A model generated the notes under the pieces. The model did not search any database, was not told the origin of the DNA, and worked only from the letters and a program-made list of their open reading frames with translations. A DNA stretch of 64,000 nt from Isurus oxyrinchus (lineage: Eukaryota), in contig JANJGN010000010.1 of NCBI GenBank assembly GCA_026770705.1, positions 23,808,001-23,872,000 on the forward strand. Direction: 5' to 3'. Shown one piece after another: positions 4,286 through 47,845 of the stretch. Position numbers and translations under genes: made by a program. The stretch's first letter is position 1. The number at the start of each line of letters is the position of its first letter.

Positions 4286-4404
4286 CAAAAACAGGAAATG
4301 CTGGAATAACTCAGCAGGTCTAGCAGCCTCTGCAGAGAGAGAAACAGAGTTAACGTTTCGAGTCTGTATGACCCTTCTTCAGAACATATCAGAACATGTT
4401 CTTC
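4286..4404 (-). mobile_element. Penelope-derived mini-element with 13 bp TSD
   Basis: Penelope terminal sequence flanked by a perfect AAAACATTTGGGA at 4273-4285 and 4405-4417. Confidence 0.9.
4349..4385 (-). ncRNA. Minimal type I hammerhead ribozyme motif, canonical core
   Basis: Minus strand GUU-CUGAAGA-A-GGGUC(AUACA)GACUC-GAAA-CG-UU-AAC: core boxes, 5 bp stem II, palindromic ACGU stem III and 3 bp stem I. Confidence 0.75.
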
Positions 4405-5789: not shown

Positions 5790-6430
5790 AGGAACATAGG
5801 AACAGGAGTAGGCCATTTGGCCTGTTGAGCCTGCTCCACCATTCAACTAGATCATGGCTGGTCTACTACCGCAACACCATTTTCCTGCGGTATCCCCATA
5901 TTCCTTGATGCAGCTACCATCTAAAAATCTATCGATCTCTGCCTTGAACATACTCAATGACTGAGCCTCCACAGCCCTCTGGGGTAGAGAATTCCAAAGA
6001 TTTACCATCCTCTGAATGAAGAAATTCCTCTTCATCTTAGTCTTACATGGCTTACCTCTTATTCTTATTCTGAGACTGTGTCCCCTGGTTCTACGCACCC
6101 TGCCACCACAGCAACCAGGAGAATCTTCCTGCACCTACCCTGTGGAACCCTGTAAGAATTTTATATGTTTCAATTATATCACCGCTCGTTCTTTTAAAAT
6201 CTAGAGAATACAGGCCCAGTCTCCTCAATCTCTCCTCATTGGACAACCCACCATCCCAGGGATCAGTTTGGTGAATCTTTGTTACACTCCCTCTATGGCA
6301 AGTATATACTTCCTTAAGTAAGGAGACCAAAATTGTACGTAATGCTCCAGATATTGTCTCACCAAGGCTCGATACAATTGCAGCAAGACAACTTTACTCC
6401 TGTACTCAAATCCTCTTGCAATAAAGGTCA
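5790..6430 (-). mobile_element. CR1 LINE 3' portion
   Basis: Minus-strand ORFs read EERLRRLGLYSL...GDIIETYKIL and RTRGHSL...RMVNLWNSLPQRAVEA; CR1 tail at 5790-5850. Confidence 0.92.
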
Positions 6431-6439
6431 ATTATATGG

Positions 6440-7975
6440 CAGTTAATGGCTAATGGAGTAAAGCCCACACAAAATCTGGAGTGGAGTCCCATTAGCAGAT
6501 TGGTGTTTCCTGCAAGTTAGGACCTTCTGGCAACTCCTGCAACTGGCCAGGCCCCCGATGTATAGTCTTTAGTCTTCCCTCTGGATGCCAGTCTACGAGG
6601 TCAAGAGGGTGGTACAGATTCTAGGCAAGTTGGCACCTTCCAAAACTGTGACTAGGTTGCATAGCAAAAAAAGAAAGGTAATCATTTGGCTTGGAAGCTG
6701 GAATCTGAGGACTATGTGCCCTGGCATTAACAACAGCTCACATTCCACAGCAAATGGACTCAAGATAGCCCTGATTGACCCAGAGCTACTCAAGCTTGTG
6801 TCGACCTTGCCTCTCCACTACAAATCAGATTAGCCGACACAGTCTCTATTTGTGAAGATAATTGCACCTTCTACTGACATGGAAAAGGCACTGAAGACCA
6901 CTGTGAGCATGGCGTAAGCTTTGCAGTAAGCAACTGGTTGATACAGTCAATTGAGTCACTAGTAGCAACCTCAGAGTGCCTCATCTTTCTGTGACTGTCA
7001 TCTGATGGAGGTGCAGTCAATATCATATGTGCCTGTGCACCAACTTTGTATGCCAGCATTTCAGTTAAGGTGCATTTCTATGACTCCTAGGTAATGTTCT
7101 GAGAAGCATTTCAAACGGCGAGAGGCTATCCATTCTGGGTGACTTCAATGTACATATTGGGGTGGCAAGCGATTCACGGCCAATATGACTTGGTGGCAAG
7201 ATAAATTATAATGGACAACACCTTCTTGAGTTTTATGCCCTGAATGAGCTCTGTGTCAATGGCACCTTTTTTTCAGGGCAGACATCACCACAAGGTTCAC
7301 AGCATCACCCAGAGCCTGGACATTGACATCAACTAGGCATGGTCATAATGAGAAGGCGCGATCTGCCCAGTATTCTACACACCCGCAATGCTCTACCACA
7401 GTGCAGATGCGGCACAGGCCATTGTCTTGTCAGAAGAACAGTGAAGGTGCACCCCTGAAAGTTTCACAGTTCCAAACACGATGGCCTGCCACACATCAAC
7501 ATCCCCTGCACAAGTAATGGTGTCAAATAGCAACACTTTGCACTGTTGCTAGAATGACTACTACCCACTAAAGGTTTACCAGGAAGTGCCACAGCTGGTA
7601 TCAGTGAAGTGTGGAAGTCATGAAGCTCAATCATTGATGAAGCAGCATTATTTGGACATGTGCAGCTGAGATGACGTCAGTCATTGATGCAAAAAACAAA
7701 GCCTTACCTGATGGAGAACATAAACCCAACACCTAAAACACAGCATGACCTAAAAGGAGCCAGGACAACTGTGCAAAAGACAAAATATACTGTTCAAATA
7801 AACACTGGATCAACTTATGACAGAAAATCCAAACTGCCTGTGACAATAGAAATCTATGAACAGTGTATGAAAGGATCAAGGGGACACTTGGTCCTACCAC
7901 ACCAAATTTGTACCCCTGAAGTCAGCAGATGGTGACGTACTCACCGACATAAGTAAACCATTGGGCTGAACACTG
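6440..7975 (+). mobile_element. Decayed RTE-clade LINE (endonuclease region)
   Basis: GSWNLRTM..., HGVSFAV, ICACAPTL and ILGDFNVHIG in broken frames, resembling an RTE/BovB APE domain. Confidence 0.7.
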
Positions 7976-8179
7976 ACCCCTGGGGAACTCCACTGCAAAC
8001 CTCCGCAAGTCTAAAAAACATCCATTAAAAACTGTTTCCTGTCATTCAGCCAATTTCGTATCCATGTTACTACTGTCCCTTTCATTCCATAAACTGTAAC
8101 TTTGTTTACAAACCTTTTGTGCGGCACTGTATCATGTGCCTTTGGAAGTCTATGTACACCACATCAACAGCACTACCTT

Positions 8180-8347
8180 AATATAAAAGCAAAATATTGT
8201 GGATGCTGGAAATCTGAAACAAAAACAGAAAATGCTGAAATAACTCAGCAGGTCTAACAGCATCTGTGGAGAGAAAGACAGTTAACGCTTTGAGTCCATA
8301 TGACTCTTCTTCAGCTCTGAAGAAGAGCCATACGGACTTGAAACATG
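8180..8347. mobile_element. Penelope-derived fold-back mini-element with ~14 bp TSD
   Basis: TSD AACAGCACTACCTT (8166-8179) / AACAGCATTACCTT (8348-8361). Back-to-back degenerate hammerhead motifs are centred at ~8315. Confidence 0.88.
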
Positions 8348-8570
8348 AACAGCATTACCTTCATCAGCCCTCTCTGTTACCTCCTCAAAAAACTCCAGCA
8401 AGTTAGTCAAACAGGATTTCCCTTAACAAATCCATGCTGGCTTTCCTTAATTAACCTGCATTTATCCATGTGATTAATAATTTTGTCCCAAATTATTTTT
8501 CTAGAAGTTTCCCCACCACCAAAGTTAAACTGACTGGCCTATAGTTGCTGGGCTTATCTATTTTTGAACA

Positions 8571-10392: not shown

Positions 10393-10529
10393 CAGCTTGG
10401 GGGTAAAGTCGGCTCGGAAAAAAACAAAAAGTTAGGAAATGACTGGTACTGGTCCGAGCTGTAGTTCCACATTGAGATATACAAAACCATTTCCGACCAA
10501 TCCCGGTTATTTACCAAGTTTACAGTTTC

Positions 10530-13500: not shown

Positions 13501-14340
13501 TCCACTCCCCCCTTCCCCTCTCCTCCCCCCCTTCCCCTCTCCTCCCCCCTTCCCCTCTCTCCCCCTTCTCCCACCCCACTTTCCCCCCTTTCCCCTCTTC
13601 CCCCTCGTCTCTCCTCCCCCCTTCCCCTCTCTCCCCCTTCCTCCCCCTCCTTCCCACCCCACTTCCCCCCCTTCCCCCTCCTCCCTTCACCCCTCCTCCC
13701 CTCCCCTCTCCCCTCCTCCTTCCCCTCTCCACTCCCCCCTCTCCCTCTCCCCCCTCCCCTATCACTTTCCTTTCCCCCCTCTCCTCTCCTTCCTCCTCCC
13801 CCTCGCCTCTCACCCCCCTCCCCCCTCTCTCCTCCCCTCTCACCCCCTCCCCCTCTCTCCTCCCCTCTCACCCCCTCCCCCCTCTCTCCTCCCCTCTCAC
13901 CCCCTCCCCCTTCTCTCCTCCCCCTTTCCCTTCCCCCGCCATTTCCCCTCCCTCCCCCCTCTCTCCTCCCCCTTTCCCTTCCCCCGCCATTTCCCCTCCC
14001 TCCCCCCATTTTCCCCTTCCTCCCCATTTCCCCTCCCCCCACCCCCCATTTCCCCTCCCCCCACCCCCATTTCCCCTCCCCCCCACCCCCACCCCCCCAC
14101 CCCCCCATTTCCCCTTCCTCCCCATTTCCCCTCCCCCCACCCCCCCATTTCCCCTCCCCCCACCCCCCATTTCCCCTCCCCCACCCCCCATTTCCCCTCC
14201 CCCACCCCCCATTTCCCCTACCCCCATTTCCCCACCCTCCCCTTCCCTCTCCCCCCATATTTCCCGTCCCCATTTCGCTTCCCCATTTCCCTTCCCCTCT
14301 CTCCCCCCCATTTCCCTTTCCCCATTTCCCTCCCCCTCCA
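10530..14340. repeat. C/T-only low-complexity tract containing two assembly gaps (10953-11092, 13340-13474)
   Basis: Almost exclusively C and T on the plus strand, with internal duplications; N runs seen directly. Confidence 0.97.
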
Positions 14341-15700
14341 TTTCCCCTCTCTACCCCCCATTTCCCTCCCCCTCCATTTCCCCTCTCTACCCCAATTTCC
14401 CCTCTCTACCCCCCCAGATTTCTCTTCTCTACCCCCCAATTTCTCCTCTCTACCCCCCCAATTTCTCCTCTCTACCCCACCCCCCAATTTCTCCTCTCTA
14501 CCCCCCATTTCTCCTCTCTACCCCCCATTTCTCCTCTCTACCCCCCCATTTCTCCTCTCTACCCCCCCAATTTCTCCTCTCTACCCCACCCCCCAATTTC
14601 TCCTCTCTACCCCCCCCATTTCTCCTCTCTACCCCCCCCCCCCCCATTTCTCCTCTCTACCCTCCCATTTCTCCTCTACCCCCCCCAAATTTCTCCTCTC
14701 TACCCCCCCAATTTCTCCTCTCTACCCCACCCCCCAATTTCTCCTCTCTACCCCCCATTTCTCCTCTCTACCCCCCATTTCTCCTCTCTACCCCCCCCAT
14801 TTCTCCTCTCTACCCCCCCCCATTTCTCCTCTCTACCCCCCCCCATTTCTCCTCTCTACCCCCCCATTTCTCCTCTCTACCCCCCCCCACAATTTCTCCT
14901 CTCTACCCCCCCCATTTCTCCTTTCTACCCCCCACAATTTCTCCTCTCTACCCCCCCCCCCCACAATTTCTCCTCTCTACCCCCCCCCCCACAATTTCTC
15001 CTCTCTACCGCCCCCCCACAATTTCTCCTCTCTACCCCCCCCCCCACAATTTCTCCTCTCTACCCCCCCCCCACAATTTCTCCTCTCTACCCCCCCCTCC
15101 ACAATTTCTCCTCTCTACCCCCCCCCACAATTTCTCCTCTCTACCCCCCCCCCCACAATTTCTCCTCTCTACCCCCCCCCCACAATTTCTCCTCTCTACC
15201 CCCCCCACAATTTCTCCTCTCTACCCCCCCCCCACAATTTCTCCTCTCTACCCCCCCCAATTTCTCCTCTCTACCCCCCCAATTTCCCCTCTCTACCCCC
15301 CCAATTTCTCCTCTCTACCCCCCCAATTTCTCCTCTCTACCCCCCCCACACACAATTTCTCCTCTCTACCCCCCCGCAACCACAATTTCTCCTCTCTACC
15401 CCCCCCCCCCCAACCACAATTTCTCCTCTCTACCCCCCCCCACCACCACCACCACAACAATTTCTCCTCTCTACCCCCCCCCCCCCACCACAATTTCTCC
15501 TCTCTACCCCCCCCCAACAATTTCTCCTCTCTACCCCCCCCCCCAACAATTTCTCCTCTCTACCCCCCCCCCCAACAATTTCTCCTCTCTACCCCCCCCC
15601 CCAACAATTTCTCCTCTCTACCCCCCCCCCCCAACAATTTCTCCTCTCTACCCCCCCCCCCCCCCAACAATTTCTCCTCTCTACCCCCCCCCCCCCAATT
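14340..15700. repeat. Minisatellite (A)ATTTCTCCTCTCTAC+(C)n, unit ~21-30 bp, roughly 55-60 copies
   Basis: Near-invariant core separated by variable poly-C runs; copy number estimated from array length. Confidence 0.97.
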
Positions 15701-15719
15701 CTGGGGCTCCATGGTTTCC

Positions 15720-16640
15720 CAGAACTGAGCACGTAGGGGCGGGGCTAACTGTACGCGGGACGTGCGTCGGGAGGGAGGGAGGGCAATTTGTTGGGAACGG
15801 CGGGGCGTTGCGTGCGCGCGGCGTGGAAGGATTATGGGTAGGCCGGCGGCGCGCACGTATGGGAGACACGGGACGCGCGGACATTTTGTCGGGATCGCGG
15901 ACGCCCTCCAGGGAGAAAGCGGGAGAGAGGGAGCGGAGTATGTGAGGCGAAAGGAAGAAAGCTCGGTGTGAGCGGTCCCGGGGGGGGCATTCACCAGGCC
16001 GGAGAAGGAGGAGGAAGAAGAAGGAGAAGAAGCGGGGGGCAGGGAGAAGAAGGAGGAGGAGGAGGAGGGTGTACTTATTTATTATTTAGATTCCTCTCTC
16101 GGTGTTTTCCCCGGTCGGGATGAGCCGGCGGGTCGGCCTGTCGCTGCTGCTGTTCTGAGGTCCCCGCAGTCTCCGGTGTTATTTTATCTACAGTTAGAAA
16201 CATTATTTATTAGGTTTACACCCCTCCCTCCCTCCCTCCCTCCCCGGCACCACCTCACCTTTCTTCCCCGGGGGCTGAGTGTAGGCCGCCCGCCACACAC
16301 CGGCCTCGAGTCCGTCTCTTCCCCTCACCACCTTCTCCCCCCCCCCCCCCCCCCAAAACCCACTTTCCTTCCACCCGGCCTCCTGCCGAAGATGATGTGC
16401 GAGGTGATGCCGACCATCAGCGAAGACACGCTGAGCCCGCGGGGCTCGCAGTACGGCGCCGAGACCGAGGCCAATTTCGAGCAGCTGATGGTGAACATGC
16501 TAGACGAGCGCGACAAGCTGCTGGAGAGCCTGCGGGAGAGCCAGGAGTCGCTGGCCCTGTGTCAGGCCAAGATGCAGGAGGCTTTCCACGAGAGGGACTC
16601 GCTGCAGAGGCAGCTCAACACCGCCTTACCTCAGGTAGGA
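15720..16640 (+). promoter_or_regulatory. CpG island / promoter and 5' UTR region of the liprin-alpha gene
   Basis: Dense CpG (CGTGCGCGCGGCG, GGCGGCGCGCACG) in a CpG-poor window; GC box GGGGCGGGGC at 15736-15745; overlaps the first coding exon. Confidence 0.85.
16392..16634 (+). CDS. ppfia4: Liprin-alpha first coding exon (81 codons), most similar to liprin-alpha-4
   Basis: [12 protein letters not shown]...[26 protein letters not shown]...[16 protein letters not shown], then donor CAG|GTAGGA after LPQ. Family is certain. The paralog call rests on ANFEQ and [11 protein letters not shown], which match PPFIA4 as recalled rather than PPFIA1/2 (SHFEQ, RLLDTLRETQE). Confidence 0.85.
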
Positions 16641-18764
16641 GGGAAGGGAGCCACCTAAACAACCAACACACCCCATCCCTTTCAAATAAACACTCACTCC
16701 AGGCCTTTGCCTTCCTCCCTGTCTCCTTCTGCTACTTTGTTAGCAACTGCAGGCACTAAAAGCTGCCAACTTTCATAAAACCATTTTTAAAAAAAAAACT
16801 TCTGTCTAAATCCAAAGGGAAGGGAGGGGGTGCTCAGCTCTTCTAGTAGCAAACCTTTTTGTGGTCTCTTTCTGAGTTAAGATTCCCTCCAACAAACAAA
16901 AACACACGCACACAACGACACTTTGTGCAAGAATGTGACAATTCACCTTAATTTAACCTTTTTTCTTGTAAAGGGGGTCATCTACTCGGGATCGAGTGGA
17001 ATGTAATTATTTCATTACAAAGCAACGCACTCCTTCCCCCGCCCCGTTACCTTCACTCAAAGGCTGCTTTTCCCAAGGGCATGGAGTAGGTACTTTCTGA
17101 ACACAATCTCTTTTAGGAACAAAACCCATTGTGTTTAAATATATCAAATACAAGTTTTTGGTGACGAGGTGATTTCAAATGCTATGTCAGTCTGGCAGTC
17201 ATTGTTAGCGATAAGATATGCTTGCCTCACAGTGGTACAGCTAGGATATAAACGCATCTTGAAACTTTGGGCAAGCTAGTTGTTTATTATTAAAGATGCA
17301 TTGATGATTTTGTTACTTGTTGCCTCTAAACTAGGGGATTTGGTAATCTGGCATTTACATCCAGTCGTCTGTGCTGCTGTTTGTGCACTTGCATAATTAG
17401 ATTGTGAATTGTGTTCCCAGTTTTTTAGAAATTTTGTATTGTTTTGCATTGTGAAGATAGTTATCCTTCAAGGAGAGTTGGACTACATCAGTTACACAGT
17501 TGATGTAGACTTTCATCTATGGTCGTCATGTAATCTAATTGGAAAGGCATATGCAGTGGTTTGGAACAGAAGATATTAAATTTAAATGCTGGATGAAACT
17601 TGTGCATACCGCACACCCTTTCCAAATCTAAAATAGCACATTGTTCTTTAAAGTATATGCAAGTGTTTCCGTTCCAATTGTGATATGTGATTTCTGGATT
17701 TGACTACAGCCATTTGTATTATAGTCAGCTGAACTAAATTGGAATAATGTATATGTTAGTTATAACTTGTATTGTTAGACTCAGTGAACAAACAGTTTTG
17801 GTTTGAAATTGATCAGAGCAGGAAGTGTTGAACAAGCTTTACTTTCTCAACAACTGATTGTTTTATACCTCTTTAATTATTTGACCCGAAACAAATAATG
17901 CTGCACCTAGTTACATAGAACAGTAGCAGAGAGCCTTTTATTTATATTGCGTTTTACAACTTGTCTAGATCATTTTGAGGCTTTAGACACATTTATGTTA
18001 CTGGTGCTGGGTCAGTCGAAATAAAAGCAAATCTTACTGTAGACTTCAGATTTTTCGGCATATAAATAATATACATCATGGGAATAAAGAGATGTGAAAA
18101 TATCAAGCAATCTGAAGAATTGCAACACTATGACTCTGTCCTTAATGCTGGTTATAACTGGGAATTGTATCTTGAGGATTATTGGCTTAAAGGTCCCCTC
18201 TTTCTATTTCAAAATGTAATCTGTGTGTGTAGTTTGGGTTATGGAATCAGTACATTCTTTGGGTCTAAACGGGTATTACTTGTGTGAAAGGCAGGTTTTA
18301 CAATTTCTGAGCAGTTCATTATTTTGAAAGAATGCAATTTAATACTGTAAAAGTGTTTTACAGTCAGCTGGCATTAGTACCAGATTTAACTGCTTGCATG
18401 CATAGGTTGCACAGTTGTTAAACTAACACGTTATTAGGAAGTGTTGGATTTGTTATGGGTGCCAAAATGTTTTACCCAGCCAATAATAAAACAACACCGT
18501 GGCCTTTGGTGTACTTTTTTTCATTTAAAAAGGGCAAATATGTGTGTACACAGATTAAAGTTTTTTCCAAAATTGTGATGTAGTTTTATTTCTAAGTTGT
18601 TGGACCTTATGGTGTGGGGCTGCCAGCGGCAAGTAACAATGTACTGAAATAAAGACTTCAACCAACCATATAGAGGTAAAAGTTGTTCATAATACTACGA
18701 CAGTTGTTTACCATGCTGTGCATTGAATGAAAAGCTGGACTGATTTTTAAATCTCTGACTGAAC

Positions 18765-20127: not shown

Positions 20128-22596
20128 TATAAAAGCAAAAAACTGCGGATGCTGGAAATCCAAAACAAAAACAAAAATACCTGGAAAAACTCAGCAGGTC
20201 TGGAAGCATCTGTGGAGAGGAGCACAGTTAACATTTCAAGTCTGCATAACTCTTCAACAGAACTAAAGAAAAATAGGAAAGGGGTGAAATATAAGCTGGT
20301 TTAAGGGTGGGGGGGGGTGGGGGGGGTGGTGTTGGGTCAAGAAGAGCTAGGTAGAGGGCCAGTGATAGGTGGAGATAACCAAAAGATGTCACAGACAAAA
20401 GGACAGAGGTGTTGAAAGTGGTGATATTATCTAAAGGAATGTGCTAATTAAGGGTAGAAAGCAGGACGAGCAAGGTACAGATAGCCCTGGAAAAACTCAG
20501 CAGGTCTGGCAGCATTGGCGGAGAAGAACAAAGTTGACGTTTCGAGTCCTTGTGACCTTCAACAGATTCTCGTTCTGTTGAAGGGTCATGAGGACTCGAA
20601 ACGTGAACTTTGTTCTTCTCCACCGATGCTGCCAGACCTGCTGAGTTTTTCCAGGTATTTCTGTTTCTTGTTTTGAATTTCCAGCATCCGCAGTTTTTTG
20701 TTTTTATATTTATACAGATAGCCCTAGTGGGGGTGGGGTGAAGGAATTGAAAAAGGCTAAAAGGTACAGCTACAACAATGGATAGGAATACATTTAAAAA
20801 TAATGGAAATAGGTGGGAAAAGAAAAATCTATATAAATTATTGGAAAAAACAAAGGAGGGGGAAAATCGAAAAGGGAGTGGGGATGGAGGAGAGAGTTCA
20901 TGATCTAAAATTATTGAACTTAATATTCAGTCCAGAAGGCTGTAAGGTGCTTAGTCGGAAGATGAAGTACTGTTCCTCCAGTTTGCGTTGAGCTTCACTG
21001 GAACAATGCAGCAAGCCAAGGACGGACATGTGGGCATGAGAGCAGGGTTGAGTGTAGAAATGGCAAGCAACAGGGAGGTCTGGGTCATGCTTGCAGACAG
21101 ACCAAAGATGTTCTGCAAAGCGATCACCCAGTCTGCGTTCAGTCTCTCCAATGTACAGGAAACCGTATTGGGAGCAACAAATGCAGTAAACTAAGTTGGG
21201 GGAAGTGCAAGTGAAATGCTGCTTCACTTGAAAGGAGTGTTTGGGCCCTTGGACGGTGAGGAGAGAGGAAGTAAAGGGGCAGGTGTTGCATCTTCTACGG
21301 CTGTGTGGGAAGGTGCCGTGGGAGCGGGTTAAGGTGTAGGGGGTGATGGAGGAGTGGACCAGGGTGCCACACAGGGAACAATCCCTGCGGAATGCCGCCG
21401 GGGTGTGAAGGGAAGATGTGTTTGGTGGTGGCATCATGCTGGAGTTGGCGGAAATGGCGGAGGATGATCCTTTGAATGCAGAGGCTGGTGGGGTGATAAG
21501 TAAGGATAAGGGGGACCCTATCATGTTTCTGGGAGGGAGAAGAAGGTGTAAGAGCGGATGTGTGGGAAATGGGTCGGACACGTTTGAGGGCCCTGTCAAC
21601 CACTGTGGGTGGAAAACCTCAGTTAAGGAAGAAGGAGGACATGTCAGAGGAACTGTTTTTGAAAGTGGCATCATCAGAACAGATGCGACAGAGGCAAAGG
21701 AACTGAGAGAATGGGATGGAGTCCTTACAGGAAGCGTGGTGTGAGGAACTGTAGTCGAGGTAGCTGTGGGAGTCGGTAGGCTGAGGTAGCTGTGGGACTC
21801 GGTAGGCTTGTAATGGATATTGGTGGACAGTCTATCACCAGAGATTGAGACAGAGAGATCAAGGAAGGGAAGGGAAGTGTCAGAGATGGACCATGTGAAA
21901 ATGATACAGGGGTGGAAATTGGAAGCAAAATTATTAAGTTTTTCCAGGTCCAGATGAGAGCGTGAAGCAGCACCGAAGTAATCATTGATGTACCGGAGAA
22001 AAAGTTGTGGAAGGGGGCCAGAGTAGGACTGGAACAAGGAATGTTCCACATTCCCCATAAAGAGACAGGCATAGCTGCGGCCCATGCTGGTACCCATAGC
22101 CACACCTTTTATTTGGAGGAAGTGAGAGGAGTTGAAGGAGAAATTGTTTAGTGTGAGAACAAGTTCAGCCAGACGGAGGAGAGTAGTTGTGGATGGGGAT
22201 TGTTCGGGCCTCTGTTCCAGGAAGAAGTGGAGAGCCATTAGACCATCCTGGTGGGGGATGGAGGTGTGGAGGGATTGGATGTCCATGGTGAAGAGGAGGT
22301 GGTTGTTGTCAGGGAACTGGAAATTGTTGATATGATGTAGGTGGGAAGGGACTGGACAAGGGGAGAGAGAATGGAGTCAAGATTGCAAGAAATGAGTTCC
22401 GTGGGGCAGGAACAGGCTGCTGGGACAGTTCTGTTTGTGGATTTTGGGTAGGAGTTAGAAGCAGGCTGTTGGAGTTTGGGAGACTATCAGGTTGGAAGCT
22501 GTGGAAGGAAGATCTTCAGAAGAGATGAGGTCAGTAACAGTCCTGGAAACAATGGCTTAATGTTCAGTGGTGGGGTCATGGTCCAGGGAGAGGTAG
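20128..22596 (-). mobile_element. Penelope-like retroelement P1 (5'-truncated; RT + GIY-YIG endonuclease)
   Basis: MDIQSLYTSI, QIKGVAMG, FLRYINDYF, LPFLDL and VYCICCSQYGFLYIGETERRLGDRFAEH...PSGLN; 3' terminal repeat at 20128-20890. Confidence 0.93.
20489..20712. mobile_element. Fold-back hammerhead mini-element nested in P1, 13 bp TSD
   Basis: Inverted arms around ~20570; TACAGATAGCCCT at 20476-20488 and 20713-20725. Confidence 0.9.
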
Positions 22597-24957: not shown

Positions 24958-25950
24958 AAGCAAGTGGCAGATGGCCCTAGTGGGGGTGGGGTGGGGGGAA
25001 GGGATCGAAATGGGCTAAAAGGTGGAGATAAAACAATAGATCAAAATAAATTTAAAAATAGGTGCAGAAGGTGCAACACCTGCTTTATCCCCCCACCCCT
25101 CCTCACCGTCCAAGTGCCCAAACACTCCTTTCAAGTGAAGTAGCACTTCACTTGCACTTCCCTCAATTTAGTCCACTGCATTCGCTGTTCCCAATGCGGT
25201 CTCTTCTACATTGGAGAGACCAAACGCAGACTGGGTGACCGCTTTGCGGAACACCTTCAGTCTGTCTGCCAGCATGATCCAGACCTTCCTGTCACTTGCC
25301 ATTTCAACACACCACCCTGCTTTCATGCCCACATGTCGGTCCTTGGCCTGCTGCAATGTTCCAGTGAAGCTCAACGCAAACTGGAGGAACAGCACTTCAT
25401 CTTCTGACTAGGCACTTTACAGCCTTCTGGACTTAATATTGAGTTCAACAATTTCAGATCATGAACTCTCTCCTCCATCCCCACCCCCTATCCGATTTCA
25501 CCCCCCCCCCAAATAATTTATAATTTAAAAAAAAGTTTTCTTTTCCCACTTATTTTTAAATTTATTTCGATCTGTTGTTCTATCTCCACCTTTAGCTCAT
25601 TTCAATCCCTCCCCCCACCCCCACTAGGGCCATCTGCCACTTGCTTGTCCTGCTTGCTACCCTTAATGTCCCCATTAGCACGTTCCTTAAATAATATCAC
25701 CACCGTCAACACCCTTTTGTCCTTTTGTCTATGACATCTTTGGCAATTTCTTCTTTGCCTGCACCTATCACTGGCCCTCTATCCAGCTTTACCTGTCCCA
25801 CCCCCCTCTACCAGCTTATATTTCACCTCATTTCTCTATTTCCTTAGTTCTGATGAAGAGTCATATGGACTCTAAACGTCAAATGTGTTCCTCTCCGCAG
25901 ATGCTGTCAGACCTGCTGAGTTTTTCCAGCTATTTTTGTTTTTGTTTCAA
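24958..25950 (+). mobile_element. Short Penelope copy (GIY-YIG end + 3' repeat) with a 5' inverted segment
   Basis: VHCIRCSQCGLFYIGETKRRLGDRFAEHL on the plus strand; 24958-25062 is an inverted copy of ~25545-25650. Confidence 0.9.
25846..25884 (+). ncRNA. Hammerhead motif, sense to the host gene, G12 mutated
   Basis: AGUU-CUGAUGA-A-GAGUC(AUAUG)GACUC-UAAA-CGUC-AAAU; GAAA>UAAA, so likely inactive. Confidence 0.6.
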
Positions 25951-28714: not shown

Positions 28715-30990
28715 TTTATCCTTTGGGATGTGGGCATTGCCAGCTAGATGAGCATTTATTGCTCATCTCTCATTGTCCTTGTGGTGATCTTGAATCACGT
28801 TCTTGAACTGCTGCAGTTCATGTGATGCAGCTATACCCACTGCTGTAACGAAGGGTGTTCCAGGATTTTGACCTAGTGACAGTGAAGGAACAATGATATA
28901 CTTCCAAGTCAGAATGCAGCGTGGCTTGGAGGGGGACTTGCAGGTGGTGGTGTTCCCATGGATTCGGTGTCCTGCCTTTCTAGGTGGTAGAGGCCACAGG
29001 TTTGGAAGGTGCTGTTGAAGGAGCTTTGGTAAGTTGCTGCAATGCATCTTGTCAGTGGCACACAGTTGCCACTGTGTGCATTGATGGTGGAGGGATTGAA
29101 TGCGTAAGGTGTTGGACTACTTTGTCCTGGGTGTTGTTGAGCTTCTTGAGTGTTGGAGCTGCACTCATGCAGGCAAGTGGAAAGTATTCCATCACACTCC
29201 TAACTTGTGCCTTGTAGATGGTGGACAAGCTTTGGGGATTCAGAAGGTGCCGCAGGATTCCCAGCCTCTGACCTGCTCTTGTGGTCACAGTATTTATATG
29301 GCTGGTCCAGTCCAGTTTCTGGTCAATGGTAACCCCCAGGATGTTGTTGAGGATTTAGCAGTAGTAAAGCCATTGAATGTTAAGGGGAGATGATTAGATA
29401 ATCTCTTGGAAATAGTCATTGCCTGGCACTTGTGTGGCGTAAACGTTACTTGTCACTTATCAGCCTGAACCTGAATGTTGTCTGGGTCTTGCTGCATATT
29501 GGCATTGGGTGCTTAAGTACCTGAGGAGCCTGGAATTGTGCTAAATATTTTGCAACCATCAGCAAACAACCCAATGTCAGACCTTACGATGGAAGGAAAG
29601 TCATTGACAAAGCAGCTGAAGATGGTTGGCCTCAGGACACTACCATGATGGATTCCTGCGCTGATGTTCTGGGACAACCACAACTATCTTCCTTTGTGCT
29701 AGGTATGACTCCAACCAGTAGATAATCTCCCCCTCCCCGATTCCCATTGACTTCAGGTTTAAGGCTCCTTGATGCCACACTTGGTCCTTGATGTCAAGGA
29801 CAGCTACTCTCACCTCACCTCTGGAGTTCAGCTCTTTTGTTCATGTTTGGACTTAGGCTATAATGAGGTCTGGAGCTGAATGTCCCTGGTGGAGTCCAAA
29901 CTGAATGTCAGAGCAGGTCATTGTTGAGTAAGTACCCCCTGATAGCACTGTCGACAATTCCTTCTATCACTTTGACCAAGAGTAGACTGATGTAGCAGTA
30001 ATTTGCTGGGCTGGATTTGTCCTGCTTTTGTGGATAGGAGATACCTGGGCAATTTTCCACATTGCTGGGTAGGTGGCATGTTGTAGCCACACTAGAACAG
30101 CGTGGCTTGGGGCATGGCTAGTTCTGGAGCTCAAGTCTTCAGCACTGAGGCTGGAATGTTGTCGGGGCCCATAAGTTTGCAGTATTCAGTGCCACCTTGA
30201 TAACACATGGAGTGAATCAAATTGGCTGAAAACTGGCATCAATGATGCTGGGGACTTCAGGAAGTGTCCAAGTTCATCATACAGTCAGCACTTTTGGCTG
30301 AAGATAGCTGTAAATGCCTAAGCCTTGTCTTTTGCACTGATATGCTGGGCTCCTACATTGAGGGTGGAATATTTGTGGAGCCACCTCCCCCAGTTGGTTG
30401 TTTAATTGTCCAGTGCTATTCATGACTGGATGTGGCAGGACTGCAGAGCTTGGGTCTGATCTGTTGGTTGTGGGATAGCTTAGCTCTGTCAATTGCATGC
30501 TGCTTTTCCTGCTTGTCAAGCAGGTAGTCCTGTGTTGTACCTTCACCAGGCTGATACCTCATTTTTAGATAAAAGCAAAATACTGCCGATACTGGAAATC
30601 TGAAACAAAAACAGAAAATGCTGGTAAAACTCAGCAGGTCTAGCAGCATCTGAGGAGAGAGAAACTGGTTAACGTTTCAAGTCCGTATGACCCTTCTGAA
30701 GGGCCATACGGACTCGAAACATTGACTCTGTTTCTCTCTCCACAGATGCTGCTAGATCTGCTGAGTTTTTGCAGCATTTTCTGTTTCTGTACCTCGTTTT
30801 TAGGTATGCTTGGTGCTGCTCCTGGCATGCCCTCCTGCACTCTTCTATGAACCGGGGTTGATCCCCCCCCTCCCCCTTGATGGCAATGGTAAAGTGAGGG
30901 ATATGCCAGGTCATGAGGTTACAGATGGTGTTTGAAAACAACTCTACTGTTGCTGATGGCCCACAGTGCCTCAAGGATCCCTAGTTTTGA
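28715..30990 (-). mobile_element. LINE-B copy (~2 kb, decayed RT), interrupted by a Penelope mini-element
   Basis: IYKAQVRSVMEYFPLA, KQDKSSPANY and WHIPHFTIAIK...QPRF; same 3' tail as the 9100 copy. Confidence 0.88.
30569..30789. mobile_element. Fold-back mini-element with ~14 bp TSD
   Basis: TACCTCATTTTTAG (30555-30568) / TACCTCGTTTTTAG (30790-30803); arms mirror around ~30697. Confidence 0.9.
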
Positions 30991-32860: not shown

Positions 32861-35576
32861 ATTTTTAATTAGGGTTACAGATTGTTTTAACCTGATTTCC
32901 AAGCTCACTGCTGTCCTCCCTATCTTGTGTTTCTCCATAATTTGATAGATCAGTCCTTAAAGTTCAATGTAATAGTGTGAAACTTAGCATTTCACAAGGT
33001 ATTTATAAGTATGTAACAGGATATTATTTCAGAGTTTTCAATAAGTGAATCTTCCTGAAGGATGGCCAGATGTAGAAATCAGTTTTTCACATAATTTGGC
33101 TGTACATCAAATTCTGTTCCATGTGACTTATTATGAAAAGAGAGAATTTTAGCTGTGCAATTTAACCTATGCAGTGGCTCTCCTGAAGTTGCTTTAAGGA
33201 TTCTAAAGGAACAAAAGTCAAGTGGTATACATTTTCCCTTGGGGATGAAACATTTTTTTAACTTGCTGAACTGTAATTTTCATTTGTCCACACAAATAGT
33301 AAGAACATGTTTTGTGCAGTGCTATCCTGCATGAGAGGAATATTGTTTAGAGAAGGGAGGTTTCTATTGGGTATAAGCTGGGTCACGAAAAAGGATCAGA
33401 ATTTTGCTTTCTCAAAAATTACCATTACAATGCCAAAGGTGCAATAACACATAGAAATTTTAGGTAAATATTTTGAGTTAAGGAGAAAAACTATCTGGAC
33501 ACAGGAAGGGTAGGCTGTACTGCATTCGGTCTGTTCAAAGTGGAGACTTCCATACAAATTAATGTAGTTGCTCTGTAATGCAGATGGAGTTCAGTAGTTA
33601 AACCATGCAATTTGAACATGTCCAGTTGTGTGAGCACATCTGAAGTGGCATATCTCCATGAGTGGCGATGTGTGACAAAAATCAAGATCAAGATACCTGG
33701 TAACAGTTAACACCTTCAGATTTGAAAGAAAATGCATATGCGTATTTTCTAATACCCCTTTCATCAGTCATTTTTCCACCTTTTATGAAAGAATAATAAT
33801 TTGGGGCATTCAATATATCAATAGGAAATCATGAGGGAAGGAAATACCAAGACATTAGCAATTTAAGAACTTTGCCATAGTTTTACCAGGTGATCCTCAC
33901 AATCTTTCTTTACAAAGCCCATTGTGAGCTTCATCCTCAGCCACTTGGCTTTTGTCAGACATTGTATCTCTGTCTGTAATCAGAAGGTATTCTTTGACAT
34001 TGTAACTTAAGAGGCTCATGCCAGTCAGAAAATTGAAATATTTAAATCAATTTTCAGATTGCTCTAACAGCTTGGACATGTACATATTTACAACATACTA
34101 CAGGTAACAAAACTTGACCTTGGATTTCTCATCTTCATTGAGTTAGCATCAATCAATCTTGACGTATAGTTTCAACATTTTTATTGAACATCATAGTTCT
34201 TGTCCAGCGAATGACAGCCATTATGGCTGTTGCTGCTATCTTTTGTTGAGGCACAATTTCCTGCACTACAAGCTTGTGCACTGTTCAGCAAAAAAGGTTT
34301 GTGATCATCTTATTCTGTTGTCAAGATTGTCCTAATGCAGTTCATTGCAATGGAAATACATCAAACTTCGTTTGAAAAAATGCCTGAGACCTTCTCAGGG
34401 AGAGAAATGAGAGATCTTGAAAAATGCACTGTGTATGAACCTATGGAGCTGAAAGAAAGTATTGAGGGTTGCATAATTCTTGGAATTTCCCAAGTACCTG
34501 CTCAATTCTAAAACTTCTAATCAATGTTGAGCGAAAGGAGTACTTAGGATGATGGAAACATTACATTTCTAACTGACCCTGGGCAGTAATACCTTTTACA
34601 GATGCAGAAATAATTGAGTTCTGATGCAGCTTCATACTTGCAAGCCAATTTGGCCTGTCCAATTTGGATTTAGCAGAGGAGCCCATTCAACAGTATCTCT
34701 CAAAAGTGAGAGTGAATGCAGGGATGGAATGGAGAATCTGATGCAAGCATGGACAAGCTGTTTAAAGGGAAGTAAACTGGTGTTCACTTTTCCCCCTCTG
34801 ACGCCCTTTTTCTTCCTTCCCCCGCAAGACAATGGCAATTTCTTGATTGATAATCCTAACATTCCTTTTATTTGGCGGCGGGGGGTGGTAGTGTCTGATT
34901 GTCATTATTAAATATATTTCAAAATAAAATAATTGTGCAACAGCATGGTACCATAATGAGCAACAGGAGTGGAATTATTTTGGGTAGTCCAAGTATTGCA
35001 GTATTGATTCAATGGAGATGGTACCTAAGTATTTTGTTCTGGTTTATTTTACTCCTCAAGGTGATGGCTTTGCAAGTAATGACAGATGGACCTTTGTTGA
35101 TTTCTGATGCGATCCTGGACAGTGCATATTGTTGAGCCATAACAATTGGTCCTGTTGCACTCTTCACCAATGCCTGCACTTTAAATATATTGGACATCCA
35201 TTGGAAACCAGCAGGTAGTATAACCTAGCCCCAGGGTGCAGAGACCATGTTTAACCTGTTGTTGAGATTGACTGGCTTACTTTGCACCACACCAGAGATC
35301 GAATCTGCCCTGTACCTCCCCAATAAATTGTTTTTAAAAATTTGTTCTTGTAATGTGAGTGACCTGTTATCTGAGGACATGGGCTCAATCACGTTGTGTA
35401 GAATGAGTCACGTAGGGCACCTGGATATGTGCAACAGGTCCTTTCCTGTTGGCTATTAAACCGGTTGAGTTTCATTGCAATAAAAACAAAAAACTGTGGA
35501 TGCTGGAAATCCAAAACAAAAACAGAATTACCTGGAAAAACTCAGCAGGTCTGGCAGCATTGGCGGAGAAGAAAAG

Positions 35577-35615
35577 AGTTGACGTTTCGAGTCCTCATGA
35601 CCCTTCAACAGAACT
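35577..35615 (-). ncRNA. Minimal hammerhead motif with variant core (CUGUUGA)
   Basis: AGUU-CUGUUGA-A-GGGUC(AUGAG)GACUC-GAAA-CG-UC-AACU. Confidence 0.65.
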
Positions 35616-38478
35616 GAGTGAATCTAAGGAGAGGGGTGAAATATAAGCTGGTTTAAGGTGGTGGTGGAGGAGGAGGGGGGGTGGGTGGAGAGAAGTGTGG
35701 TTGCAGGGACAAGCAAGCAGTAATAGGAGCAGATAATCAAAAGATGTCACAGACAAAAGAATACAGAGGCGTTGAAGGTGGTGATATTATCTAAACGAAT
35801 GTGCTAATTAAGAATGGATGGTAGGGCACTCAAGGTACAGCTCTAGTGGCGGTGGGGTGGAAAGGCTAGCAGGGCATAAAAGATTTAAAAATAATGGAAA
35901 TAAGTGGGAAAAGAAAAATCTATATAAATTATTGGAAAAAACAAAAGGGAGGGGAAGAAACAGAAAGTGGGTGGGGATGGAGGAGGGAGTTCAAGATCTA
36001 AAGTTGTTGCATTCAATACTCAGTCCGGAAGGCTGTAAAGTGTCTAGTCGGAAGATGAGGTGCTGTTCCTCCAGTTTGCGTTGGGCTTCACTGGAACAAT
36101 GCAGCAAGCCAAGGACAGACATGTGGGCAAGAGAGCAGGGTGGAGTGTTAAAATGGCAAGCGACAGGGAGGTTTGGGTCATTCTTGAGGACAGACCACAG
36201 GTGTTCTGCAAAGCGGTCGCCCAGTTTGCTTTTGGTCTCTCCAATGTAGAGGAGACCGCATTGGGAGCAACAAATGCAGTAGACTAAGTAGAGGGAAATG
36301 CAAGTGAAATGCTGCTTCACTTGAAAGGAGTGTTTGGGCCCTTGGACGGTGAGGAGAGAGGAAGTGAAGGGGCAGGTGTTGCATCTTTTGCATGGGCATG
36401 AGGAGGTGCCATAGATGGGGGTTGAGGAGTAGGGGGTGATGGAGGAGTGGACCAGGGTGTCCCGGAGGGAACGATATCTACGGAATGCCGCTGGGGGGGG
36501 TGAAGGGTAGATGTGTTTGGTGGTGGCATCATGCTGGAGTTGGCGGAAATGGCGGAGGATGATCCTTTGAATGCGGAGGCTGGTGGGGTGATAAGTGAGG
36601 AGAAGGGGGACCCTATCATGTTTCTGGGAGGGAAGAGAAGGCGTGAGGGTGGATGTGCGGGAGATGGGCCGGACATGGTTGAGGGCCCTGTCAACGACCG
36701 TGGGTGGAAAACCTCGGTTAAGGAAGAAGGAGGACATGTCAGAGGAACTGTTTTTGAAGGTAGCATCATCAGAACAGATGCGACGGAGGTGAAGGAACTG
36801 AGAGAATGGGATGGAGTCCTTACAGGAAGCAGGGTGTGAGGAGCTGTAGTCGAAGTAACTGTGGGAGTCGGTAGGCTTCTAATGGATATTGGTGGACAGT
36901 CTATCGCCAGAGATTGAGACAGCGAGGTCAAGGAAGGGAAGGGAAGTGTCAGAGATGGACCATGTGAAAATGATGGAGGGGTGGAAATTGGAAGCAAAAT
37001 TAATAATTTTTTCCAAGTTATGACGAGAACATGAAGCAGCACCGAAGTAATCATCGATGTACCGGAGAAAGAGTTGTGGAAGGGGGCCGGAGTAGGACTG
37101 GAACAAGGAATGTTCCACATACCCCATAAAGAGACAGGCATAGCAGGGGCCCATGCGGGTACCCATAGCTACACCTTTTATTTGGAGGAAGTGAGAGGAG
37201 TTGAAGGGGAAATTGTTCAGTGTGAGAACAAGTTCAGCCAGATGGAGGAGAGTAGTTGTGGATGGGGATTGTTTGGGCCTCTGTTCGAGGAGGAAGCTAA
37301 GGGCTCTCAGACCATCCTGGTGGGGGATGGAGGTGTAGAGGGATTGGATGTCCATGGTGAAGAGGAAGCGTTAGGGGCCAGGGAACTGGAAATTGTTGAT
37401 GTGGCGTAAGGTGTCAGAGGAATCACGGATGTAGTTGGGAAGGGACTGGACAAGGGGAGAGAGAAGGTAGTCAAGATAACAAGAAATGAGTTCCGTGGGG
37501 CAGGAGCAAGCTGAGACGATCGGTCTACCAGGACAGTTCTGTTTGTGGATTTTGGGTAGGAGGTAGAAGCGGGCTATCCGAGTTTGGGCGACTATCAGGT
37601 TGGAAGCTGTGGGAGGAAGATCTCCAGAGGAGATGAGGTCAGTGACAGTCCTGGGAACAATGGCTTGATGTTCAGTGGTGGGGTCATGGTCCAGGGAGAG
37701 GTAGGAGGAAGTGTCTGCGAGTTGACGCTCAGCCTCCGCGAGGTAGAGGTCAGTGCGCCAGACAACAACAGCACCACCCTTGTCAGCATGTTTGATGACA
37801 ATGTCAGGGTTGGACCTGCGAGAATGGAGTGCAGTAAGTTCAGAGAGAGAGAGATTAGAATGGGTGAGAGGAGCAGAGAAATTGAGACGACTAATGTCAC
37901 GCCGACAGTTCTCAATGAAAAGATCAAGAGAAGGTAAAAATCCAGAGGGAGGGGTCCAGGTGGAGGGAGAATATTGGAGGTGGGTGAAAGGATCCGTTGA
38001 ATGGGGAGAGGACTCCTGCCCAAAGAAGTGAGCCCGGAGATGAAGACGGCGGAAGAAGAGTTCAGCATCATGCCGAGCCCGAAATTCATTGAGGTGAGGG
38101 CGTAAGGGTATGAAACTAAGTCCTTTGCTGAGCACTGAACGTTCAGCATCAGAGAGGGGAAGGTCAGGGGGTATAGTGAATACACGGCTGGGGTTGGGAT
38201 TGGAAGATGGGGTGGGGACGGAGGGACAGGCAAGGGTGGAGGGTCCTAGATGGGTGTTGGTGTCGATGAGTTGTTGGAGTTGTTGTTGTGCCCTACCATC
38301 CATTGTTAATGAGCATATTCATTTTGATAATATCACCCCCTTCAACGCCTGTGTTCTTTTGTTCCTTTGTGACATCTTTCCTATCAGTGCTTGCTTGTCT
38401 CTACAACCACACCACAACTCTCCCCCCCACCCCAACCTTAAACCAGCTTATATTTCACCCCTCTCCTTAGATTCACTC

Positions 38479-38517
38479 AGTTCTGTTGAAGCGTCATGAG
38501 GACTCGAAACGTCAACT
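38479..38517 (+). ncRNA. Minimal hammerhead motif with variant core, sense to the host intron
   Basis: AGUU-CUGUUGA-A-GCGUC(AUGAG)GACUC-GAAA-CG-UC-AACU in the inverted repeat of P2. Confidence 0.6.
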
Positions 38518-38872
38518 ATTTTCTTCTCCGCCGATGCTGCCAGACCTGCTGAGTTTTTCCCGGTAATTCTGTTTTTGTTTTGAGTTTCATTGCAACTTGC
38601 ACAACTTCTTCCCCAACAACACTGATGTTTCCAGAGTTAAGTTTCTCATTAAACCTCACTGTTCAGAGTTCTGTATTTGCCCAAGATTGCCCATATGATG
38701 TTGCTCCCTTTTCCTGATGCAGTCTGTCCCCTTGGATGAAGTTATGAATTAACTAGCTTACTTAAGTTGTCCTGAAAATGAAGGGGAGCACAAATGTGAT
38801 ACAAATTAAGTATTGTATTTAATGCCTGAATATTTAATATTCAGAAACTGAACTGGACTAGCCATATAAATA

Positions 38873-41493
38873 AAAACAGAATTACCTGGAAAAACTCAGC
38901 AGGTCTGGCAGCATCGACGGAGAAGAAGAGTTGACGTTTCGAGTCCTCATGACCCTTCGACAGAACTTGAGTTCGAGTCCAAGAAAGAGTTGAAATATAA
39001 GCTGGTTTAAGGTGTGTGGGGGGCAGAGAGAGAGAGAGAAGTGGAGGGGGTTGGTGTGGTTGTAGGGACAAACAAGCAGTGATAGAAGCAGATCATCAAA
39101 AGCTGTCACAAACAACAGAACAAAAGAACACATAGGTGTTAAAGTTGGTGATATTATCTAAACGAATGTGCTAATTAAGAATGAATGGTAGGGCACTCAA
39201 GGTATAGCTCTAGTGGGGGTGGGGGGAGCATAACAGATTTTAAAATGTTTAAAAATAATGGAAATAGGTGGGACAAGAAAAATCTATATAATTTATTGGA
39301 AAAAAACAAAAGGAAGGGGGAAACAGAAAGGGGTTGGGGATGGAGGAGGGAGCTCAAGACCAAAAGTGGTTGAATTCAATATTTAGTCCGGAAGGCTGTA
39401 AAGTGCCTAGTCGGAAGATGAGGTGTTGTTCCTCCAGTTTGCGTTGGGCTTCACTGGAACGATGCAGCAAACCAAGGACAGACATGTGGGCAAGAGAGCA
39501 GGGTGGAGTGTTAAAATGACAAGCGACAGGGAGGTTTGGGTCATTCTTGCGGACAGACCGCAGGTGTTCTGGAAAGCGGTCGCCCAGTTTACGTTTGGTC
39601 TCTCCAATGTAGAGGAGACCACATTGGGAGCAACGAATGCAGTAGACTAAGTAGAGGGAAATGCAAGTGAAATGCTGCTTCACTTGAAAGGAGTGTTTGG
39701 GCCCTTGGACGGTGAGGAGAGAGGAAGTGAAGGGGCAGGTGTTGCATCTTTTGCGTGGGCATGGGGTGGTGCCATAGGAGGGGGTTGAGGAATAGGGGGT
39801 GATGGAGGAGTGGACCAGGGTGTCCCAGAGGGAGCGATCCCTATGGAATGCCGATGGGGGGGGTGAAGGGTAGATGTGTTTGGTGGTGGCATCATGCTGG
39901 AGTTGGCGGAAATGGCGGAGGATGATCCTTTGAATGCGGAGGCTTGTGGGGTGATAAGTGAGGAGAAGGGGGACCCTATCATGTTTCAGGGAGGGAGGAG
40001 AAGGCGTGAGGGTGGATGCGCGGGAGATGGGCCGGACACGATTGAGGACCCTGTCAACGACCATGGGTGGAAAACCTTGGTTAAGGAAGAAGGAGGACAT
40101 GTCAAAGGAACTGTTTTTGTAGGTAGCATCATCGGAACAGATGCGACGGAGGCGAAGGAACTGAGAGAATGGGATGGAGTCCTTACAGGAAGCGGGATGT
40201 GAGGAGCTGTAGTCAAGGTAGCTGTGGGAGTCGGTGGGTTTGTAATGGATATTGGTGGACAGTCTATCACCAGAGATTGAGCCAGTGAGGTCAAGGAAGG
40301 GAAGGGAAGTGTCAGAGATGGTCCACGTGAAAATGATGGAGAGGTGGAGATTGGAAGCAAAATTAATAAATTTTTCCAAGTCCTGACGAGAGCATGAAGC
40401 AGCACCGAAGTAATCATCGATGTACCGGAGAAAGAGTTGTGGGAGGGAGCCGGAGTAGGACTGGAACAAGGAATGTTCCACCTACCCCATAAAGAGACAG
40501 GCATAGCTGGGGCCCATGCTGGTACCCATAGCCACACCTTTTATTTGGAGGAAGTGAGAGGAGTTGAAGGAGAAATTGTTCAGTGTGAGAACAAGTTCAG
40601 CCAGACAGAAGAGAGTAGTTGTGGATGGGGATTGTTTGGGCCTCTGTTCGAGGAAGAAGCTAAGGGCCCTCAGACCATCCTTGTGGGGGATGGAGGTGTA
40701 GAGGGATTGGATGTCCATGGTGAAGAGGAAGCGTTAGGGGCCAGGGAACTGGAAATTGTTGATGTGACGTAAGGTGTCAGAGGAATCACGGATGGGAAGG
40801 GACTGGACAAGGGGAGAGAGAAGGTAGTCAAGATAACGAGAAATGAGTTCTGTGGGGCAGGAGCAAGCTGAGACGATCGGTCTACTGGGACAGTTCTGTT
40901 TGTGGATTTTGGGTTGGAGATAGAAGCGGGCCGTCCGAGGTTGGGCGACTATCAGGTTGGAAGCTGTGGGAGGAAGATCCCCAGAGGAGATGAGGTCAGT
41001 GACAGTCCTGGAAACAATAGCTTGATGTTCAGTGGTGGGGTTATGGTCCAGGGAGAGGTAGGAGGAAGTGTCTGCGAGTTGACGCTCAGCCTCCGCGAGG
41101 TAGAGGTCAGTGCGCCAGACAACAACAGCACCACCCTTGTCAGCATGTTTGATGACAATGTCAGGGTTGGACCTGCGAGAATGGAGTGCAGTAAGTTCAG
41201 AGAGAGAGAGATTAGAATGGGTGAGAGGAGCAGAGAAATTGAGACGACTAATGTCGCGCCGACAGTTCTCAGTGAAAAGATCAAGAGAAGGTAAGAATCC
41301 AGAGGGAGGGGTCCAGGTGGAGGGAGAATATTGGAGGTGGGTGAAAGGATCCGTTGAATGGGGAGAGGACTACTGCCCAAAGAAGTGAGCCCGGAGACGA
41401 AGACGGCGGAAGAAGAGTTCAGCATCATGCCGAGCCCGAAATTATTTGAGGTGAGGGCGTAAGGGTATGAAACTAAGTCCTTTGCTGAGCACT
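38873..41493 (-). mobile_element. Penelope-like retroelement P3 (5'-truncated), inserted into a LINE-B copy, 11 bp TSD
   Basis: ORF 39354-40481 (RYIDD...GIY-YIG); CCATATAAATA at 38862-38872 and 41499-41509; LINE-B sequence continues across the insertion. Confidence 0.95.
38929..38967 (-). ncRNA. Minimal hammerhead motif with variant core (CUGUCGA)
   Basis: AGUU-CUGUCGA-A-GGGUC(AUGAG)GACUC-GAAA-CG-UC-AACU. Confidence 0.65.
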
Positions 41494-47267: not shown

Positions 47268-47845
47268 GAAGCAAGATACTGTGAATGCTGGAAATCTGAA
47301 ACAAAGCGATTGCTGGAAATACGCAGGAGGCTAGGCAGCATTTGTGGAGAGAGAAACAGAGATAATGTTTCAGGTCTGTGATCTTTGACCAGAACTGGGG
47401 AAAGGAAACTCTGTGATAGGGTGGAAGACAGGAAAGGTTGAATGACAGAAAAGTTAGTCTTCCAGGGCTAAAAGGAATGGTGATGGGTCAAGAAAAAAAA
47501 CAAAAAAACAAAAGATGTGCCTAGAGCAGGTGTGCTGCTGTGTCTCCTGTCTTCCGACTTATCACATATCTTCCTCTTGTCCTTGTCCAACCTGTCCCTT
47601 ACTCAAAACCTATTCAATTTCTAACTTTTCCCAGTTCTGATGAAAGGTTGCAGACCTGAAATGAAGCTCCAATTTTTGATACGTGAAGGGAACAAACTGC
47701 ATACATTGATTATCAAGAATAGTTCAGTAATTATGTAGCTGGTCAGCAGAATCTCTACCAAACTGATTCTGATGAAGATTCCACATCTTAAACATTATAA
47801 TTTCGCCTCTCTCTTGTGTATTTCCAGCATTTTCTGTTTTCATTT
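47268..47845. mobile_element. Penelope-derived fold-back element(s) with degenerate hammerhead motifs
   Basis: Terminal motif at 47270-47400; plus-strand AGTT-CTGATGA-A-AGGTT(GCA)GACCT-GAAA at 47633-47661; second CTGATGA at 47769; inverted terminus at ~47805-47845. Confidence 0.75.

Follow-up and report, generated by a model that had tools for sequence, protein, structure and literature searches.

A hammerhead core with uridine at position 6 predominates in a Penelope-like element family of Isurus oxyrinchus

Hammerhead motifs and Penelope-like copies within the window

The subject of this report is a stretch of 64,000 nucleotides of the Isurus oxyrinchus genome (assembly GCA_026770705.1, contig JANJGN010000010.1, positions 23,808,001 to 23,872,000 of the forward strand), referred to throughout as the window, and the Penelope-like elements (PLEs) within it, the ends of which carry minimal hammerhead ribozyme motifs (min-HHRs). 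Each motif comprises stem I (AGUU/AACU), a core C3-U4-G5-N6-N7-G8-A9, an extra A, a 5-bp stem II, GAAA, a palindromic ACGU and the site N17, the same layout as that of the Penelope min-HHRs of Cervera & De la Pena 2014 (PMC4209133). In the younger copies the A expected at core position 6 (A6) is a U (U6), and it is this substitution, its abundance and its possible consequences that we describe.

The original prediction, made from the letters of the window, held that the large Penelope copies share the core CUGUYGA and that the short copies keep the canonical CUGAAGA or CUGAUGA, and every core that it named is present (core positions are quoted as the position of C3). The copy P2 (35480..38588, minus strand) is a 5'-truncated PLE whose 3' repeat bears a U6 minimal type I motif at 35577..35615 on the minus strand (CUGUUGA at 35611 plus the extra A, GUC site, predicted cut after 35581), with the tail downstream of the hammerhead at 35480-35576, and whose 5' end is an inverted repeat (approximately 38288-38588) with a second U6 motif at 38479..38517 on the plus strand (CUGUUGA at 38483). 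The neighbouring copy P3 (38868..41493, minus strand) is likewise 5'-truncated, is 93% identical to P2 and has its motif at 38929..38967 on the minus strand, where the core at 38963 is CUGUCGA (U6/C7), the core type of the youngest subfamilies. P1 (20129..22596, minus strand) is an older and decayed U6 copy, with CUGUUGA at 20260 on the minus strand, and reads GAAAUGUU where GAAACGUC is expected; inserted within it is a mini-element (20486..20707) of two head-to-head U6 motifs with tails (CUGUUGA at 20565, minus, and 20575, plus). The canonical CUGAAGA is found in an older A6/A7 motif with a GUU site at 4348..4386 (minus strand; core at 4382) and in a decayed head-to-head A6/A7 pair at 8280..8350 (cores at 8314, minus, and 8317, plus), and CUGAUGA in an older A6/U7 motif at 25846..25884 (plus strand; core at 25850) and in a decayed A6 motif at 47633..47668 (plus strand; core at 47637), which resembles a family that is older still and differs in its stem II.

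Size, on the other hand, is not what divides the two core types. Short as it is, the mini-element has U6, and upstream of the A6 motif at 25850 there are about 900 bases of the element (25063-25947), so that the real split is one between young and old subfamilies. The further claim that P2 and P3 retain the GAAA, the stems and the GUC site stands for the most part, the exception being the inverted P2 motif at 38483, in which a G>C change breaks one stem II pair (C.U). No alternative core register that would give A-N-G-A is present in the sequence, and a candidate second core in the tail (CUGCUGA) was rejected for want, by eye, of a stem I partner. An Rfam scan returned neither a hammerhead nor another ribozyme in its place in the window or in a full-length element from elsewhere in the genome (locus L040), and since the A6 copies of the window were missed as well as the U6 copies, this result is uninformative about U6; the microRNA matches that the same scan gave are inverted repeats only.

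The element and its protein

The reading frames of P2 and P3 are interrupted by stops and give weak RVT_1 and GIY-YIG matches (for P2, E 5.6e-6 and 9.5e-4). Among 20 ten-kb loci from elsewhere in the genome, picked partly for tandem spacing, three have stop-free frames for reverse transcriptase (RT) and GIY-YIG endonuclease (918 residues; 925-926 codons) between two U6 cores. In L040 the open reading frame (ORF) runs from 5709 to 8489, 926 codons with no stop, and encodes an RT followed by GIY-YIG (RVT_1 E 7e-8, above the cut-off; GIY-YIG E 9e-4, below it), the single-ORF order that defines endonuclease-bearing (EN+) PLEs. Cores about 3.34 kb apart flank such ORFs, and the copies occur as the tandem or partial-tandem pseudo-long terminal repeats and the inverted truncated forms that characterize PLEs. 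Between RT and endonuclease there is a linker motif of the form CX2-5CxxC (CPRKRCNTC in P0001), and it is by this motif that the element would be classed as Neptune-like; the comparison with Neptune-clade EN+ PLEs is by description (Craig et al., bioRxiv 2021.04.23.441226), and Nematis also has a reduced linker motif. The N-terminal frame had no match in the PDB. A pattern for the ORF start has 3,632 matches in the genome, and the repeat as a whole presumably resembles other repeats of cartilaginous fish.

The motif itself has the min-HHR features of stem I, stem II with G10.1-C11.1, the extra base after A9 and the palindromic ACGU, and the hammerhead core positions C3, U4, G5, G8, A9, G12, A13, A14, the A15.1-U16.1 pair and H17 are constant in all eight subfamily consensuses. 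Position 6 departs from the hammerhead consensus, with U in place of A.

Abundance of the U6 core in the genome

The 4.98-Gb genome contains 75,520 exact matches to the 31-base U6 motif and none to its reversed-pattern control, so the motif is not a product of chance. When the loop and stems are left free there are 104,609 U6 matches and 9,237 A6 matches, a ratio that describes well-preserved motifs only and not all copies, because exact patterns under-count old, decayed families. The U6 variant is thus no local peculiarity, with more than 100,000 matches, and the U6 lineage of this Neptune-like Penelope comprises the most numerous hammerhead-bearing subfamilies of the genome. As had been anticipated, standard motif searches pass it by: one limited to CUGANGA misses about 92% of all matches that share this geometry, and hammerhead counts in such genomes may therefore be large underestimates. 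Contigs from four runs, representing four organisms, had no other letter at 10% or more at position 6, under a likeness filter that favours U6 and with one run at very low depth, and this suggests that the family is common to relatives.

Matches with the young background and A, C or G at position 6 number 1,889, and the first 100 listed have, by eye, about 88 C, 7 A and 5 G. About 79 of these 100 have the C6/U7 core (e.g., L210-L229, L013, L014), far above the baseline expected of decay, and such copies likely stem from at least one C6 source; their core is identical to that of the variant assayed from phage Bcep176.

From A6 to U6

A6 is the ancestral state, and U6 lies on the line leading to the youngest ORF-intact copies. 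A tree built from the final 750 bases of the ORF in 34 copies (3 of 37 linked copies having been dropped as unlinked or too short) takes the form of a ladder with A6 at the midpoint root and U6 leading to the youngest tips; one young A6 copy in it looks like a back-mutation. Old-type tails chosen irrespective of the core are mostly joined to CUGAAGA, and an older family whose stem II is AGGUC/GACCU, whose loop is shorter and whose core is CUGAUGA (498 exact matches, L310-L329, and 47633-47668 of the window) carries A6 in about 89 of its first 100 matches listed. The stem II of this older family is paired differently and its core is the same. Consensuses drawn from 244 classified copies, of 264 found, form the series A6A7, A6U7, U6U7 (loop AUACG, GUU), U6U7 (loop AUUCG), U6U7/C6U7 (loop AUGAG, GUC) and U6C7, along which tail divergence drops from 0.106 to 0.012. 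Most A6 copies have a GUU site; the younger U6 families typically have GUC, which occurs in some A6 copies also. CpG decay can be dismissed as the origin of U6, since A>T involves no CpG change, and decay of C7 may have added to the U7 class.

Between the oldest and the youngest U6 consensus, 43 of 253 synonymous sites differ (dS, about 17%), 22 of 785 non-synonymous sites (dN; dN/dS about 0.16) and 61 of 342 positions in the upstream untranslated region (UTR), and from these figures we infer that the element was functional while the U6 lineage evolved. Together with the genome-wide count, the succession of U6 subfamilies and the uninterrupted ORFs, they bear out the proposal of a U6 variant that became fixed in a subfamily whose transposition went on.

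Constraint on the motif after the change

None of the 14 other core positions has changed since U6 arose, while synonymous sites changed by about 17%. The five net changes of the motif (six steps) fall at N7, in loop II, in one A-U pair that became G.U, and at U17, which became C, all of them sites at which hammerheads tolerate change, and the chance of such a distribution is P 0.0002-0.0065 under simple models. Sampling of the older classes relied on patterns in which the core is fixed; the A6 families, however, support the ancestral state, and 35 copies picked by tail alone support the young one. These 35 (39 were found, and 4 with junctions or indels were dropped) have U6 in 32 cases, C6 in two, G6 in one and A6 in none, and at core sites other than 6 they are near-invariant, with scattered changes mostly at CpG. 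The neutral decay of the remaining core and stem positions that would have spoken against a maintained variant is thus not observed along the U6 lineage.

Against the 75,520 matches of the reference motif, single-site variants number 374 at U16.1, 1,035 at U4, 1,580 at the loop U and 1,889 at U6, so that position 6 now varies much as a loop site does. Strict constraint is called into question by the U4 variants, since G is the letter in about 55 of the first 100 listed of these 1,035. In 20 U4G loci, G4 is on both inverted arms in six and accompanies a common upstream marker in five, three are junction artefacts and some are ORF-linked, from which it follows that a U4G/U6 double core mutant has itself served as a source, though for less than 1% of the family. 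The branch, with U4G/U6/C7 and the core CGGUCGA (L234, L235, L238, L243-L246, L248, L249), has been amplified, including ORF-linked copies.

These data bear on the notion that the motif is a dead relic which drifts neutrally and looks conserved because little time has passed since U6 arose. With 5-6 of its 38 sites changed, the motif as a whole has indeed stayed near the synonymous rate of 0.17, a test confined to the core returns P ~0.07, and the C6 and U4G branches exist; the placing of every one of the five or six lineage changes at a tolerated site (P about 0.001-0.007), and the rarity of U16.1 variants as compared with those of the loop U and of U6, run counter to it, and we regard a relic as improbable.

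Cut or uncut templates

Young tails that read through the predicted cut site number 88,434, as against 231 apparent junctions there. Thirty copies that include the ORF start (5 of them neighbours in two arrays) begin upstream of C3 in 23 cases, inside the motif in two, downstream in five and at the site itself in none, so that 25 of the 30 extend upstream of the cut site. We infer from this that most copies were made from uncut RNA.

The possibility that U6 is fully active, being rescued by its context (the extra base after A9, dimer formation, the element's protein or another metal ion), draws on the strength with which the remaining core has been retained, on the shift to GUC, on the good cleavage of an A6C hammerhead in Mn2+ (PMC7151607) and on the insertion ends themselves, because the 231 apparent 5' junctions at the site are about twice as many as those at neighbouring offsets (113 and 91). 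Many of the junctions have other explanations, however. Thirty of them were inspected, all at the site rather than at the control offsets, and about 7-8 are deletions, five are inversions through stem I microhomology, four have unique flanks and the rest are other inverted junctions; none of the 30 enters the ORF, all being tail-only. In published work, activity falls when the CUGA turn is substituted (PMC3088659, PMC9901934), and U6 is predicted to impair stem II in the C7 families, as described below. Full activity accordingly strikes us as distinctly doubtful.

A different alternative is that U6 abolishes cleavage and that the fold persists for the sake of a non-catalytic function, be it recognition by the element's protein, RNA dimerization through ACGU or a part in the promoter or 5' UTR of the repeat. 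The use of uncut RNA as template agrees with this, as do the amplification of the U4G/U6 branch with both inverted arms in 6 of 20 loci, insertion in vitro without cleavage in another PLE (PMC11167929), and the Naiad elements, which thrive without hammerheads (bioRxiv 2021.04.23.441226). The positions retained, however, are those required for catalysis, with site 17 moving from U to C and not to G; a structural role, as far as we can judge, need not keep G12 or H17, and the U4G branch is less than 1% of the family. We therefore consider a purely non-catalytic fold possible, if rather unlikely.

Predicted folding

In the C7 families the predicted frequency of stem II formation is 0.02 with U6 and 0.35-0.64 with A6; in the U7 families the swap has little effect or U6 is scored higher, so that the idea of U6 creating a rival fold held in C7 families only. 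Folds of the single-stranded motif are no better than those of shuffled sequences (z -0.25 to 1.47). The youngest, C7 subfamilies have acquired upstream a near-duplicate of the stem II 3' strand plus GAA (5545-5556 in L040; 38970-38982 of the window, minus strand), and it could pair with the core or with stem II.

A weakened ribozyme?

Whether U6 is an active or attenuated core or a non-catalytic fold was left open in the original prediction, and the evidence leans toward attenuation. The reading that we prefer, at about an even chance, is that the U6 motif is a weakened, slow-cutting ribozyme whose fold is still under selection. A natural A6C hammerhead is slow in Mg2+ and good in Mn2+ (PMC3088659; PMC7151607), and in a mutational scan of one type III ribozyme, single and double mutants of the CUGA region were low in activity with the exception of a C-G swap (PMC9901934); such data favour weakening. 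The element's copies would be reverse-transcribed from uncut RNA, with a start in the tail downstream of the 3' motif, by analogy with an element of the anole, hammerhead mutants of which insert unimpaired in vitro and whose cleavage needs protein (PMC11167929). If copies do derive from uncut RNA, slower cutting would cost the element little and might leave it more usable template. Residual cleavage is predicted to take place in a dimer formed via the ACGU palindrome, aided by the element's own protein, and would account for the retention of C3, G8, G12 and a base other than G at 17.

Several observations weigh against a weakened ribozyme. In folding predictions the youngest families seldom form stem II (0.00-0.02 in the two longer of the spans folded, under a rough model), a result that suits a silenced motif equally well. 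Old A6-type tails also have few ends at the site (54 as against 4,709, mostly deletions), so that insertion ends do not separate A6 from U6 and speak neither for activity nor against it. The branch parting A6 from U6 copies in the ORF tree is weakly supported, the absence of change at the 14 core sites has by itself a P of about 0.07, as noted above, and the spread of the U4G/U6 branch agrees with catalysis being dispensable.

A bolder version, which we consider unlikely, is that the lineage was selected to turn its ribozyme down stepwise, through A6>U, then C7 and the upstream duplicate of the stem II 3' strand, both of which favour rival folds, and kept it as a switch gated by protein or metal, such that uncut RNAs serve as templates and cleavage occurs only inside the ribonucleoprotein. 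Were this so, the largest hammerhead population of the genome would be one that is invisible to consensus searches.

Comparison with known systems

The motif and the element class are known, and the A6U core is a natural, uncompensated variant of the motif that is dominant in this genome. The min-HHRs of metazoan PLEs (PMC4209133) have in common with ours the type I form, the terminal repeats, a short stem I, the extra base between 9 and 10.1, G10.1-C11.1, the palindromic 15.2-16.2, an open stem III and very many dispersed copies. A core exception described there is a compensated U3-A8 pair, whereas here position 6 is U (C in a side branch) and uncompensated. Neither CUGUUGA nor CUGUCGA occurs in the text of the supplement of PMC4209133, which was searched as text only. 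Our literature search, the coverage of which did not extend to Lünse et al. 2017 or to the figures of PMC4209133, turned up no natural A6U hammerhead; the literature searched contained no rate for A6U, and the passages of bioRxiv 2026.07.22.740005 that were searched have nothing on A6. The phage Bcep176 hammerhead (PMC3088659, PMC7151607) has likewise lost A6 in nature and retained the remaining core, but is a single C6 sequence that has been assayed, whereas U6 is fixed in a retrotransposon lineage with more than 100,000 matches and is known from sequence. The PAc element of the green anole (Poseidon; Frangieh 2024, PMC11167929) shares the tandem and partial-tandem repeats, the presence of a tail at the end that is inserted and the use of uncut RNA for insertion, and differs in its canonical, protein-assisted active core and its Penelope/Poseidon clade, the element described here having U6 and a Neptune-type linker motif.

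The role of the hammerhead in PLEs has been called unclear (bioRxiv 2021.04.23.441226; PMC11167929). The combination of a naturally ordered series within a single lineage (A6A7, A6U7, U6U7 and U6C7, with C6 and U4G as side branches) and uninterrupted frames amounts to a natural test of whether these elements need RNA cutting, and because both are found in one genome, cleavage rate can be compared directly with transposition success. If U6 cleaves, the natural core consensus is widened; if it does not, a ribozyme has been retired while its host element flourishes.

Other features of the window and of inverted copies

Head-to-head inverted pairs lie at 20486-20707, 8180-8367 and 30564-30792 of the window and likewise on contig C1 of the assembly searched (G000), e.g., at 2424449/2424461. 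Many of these pairs are joined about 0-20 bases from the 5' edge of the hammerhead, some via stem I microhomology, and the joints may mark places where reverse transcription stalled or where two cDNAs annealed. An identical inverted tail junction recurs on several small contigs (C47, C62, C87, C132, C133, C169 and C261 of G000), which suggests a copy inside a tandemly repeated unit. With regard to the remainder of the window, the very long stop-free frames that extend from 10465 to 15945 across two N stretches are probably a low-complexity repeat, and a GC-rich open frame at 15972-16658 (plus strand), which terminates at a GT preceded by CCTCAG, has the appearance of a coding exon belonging to a host gene, in the introns of which the repeats probably lie.

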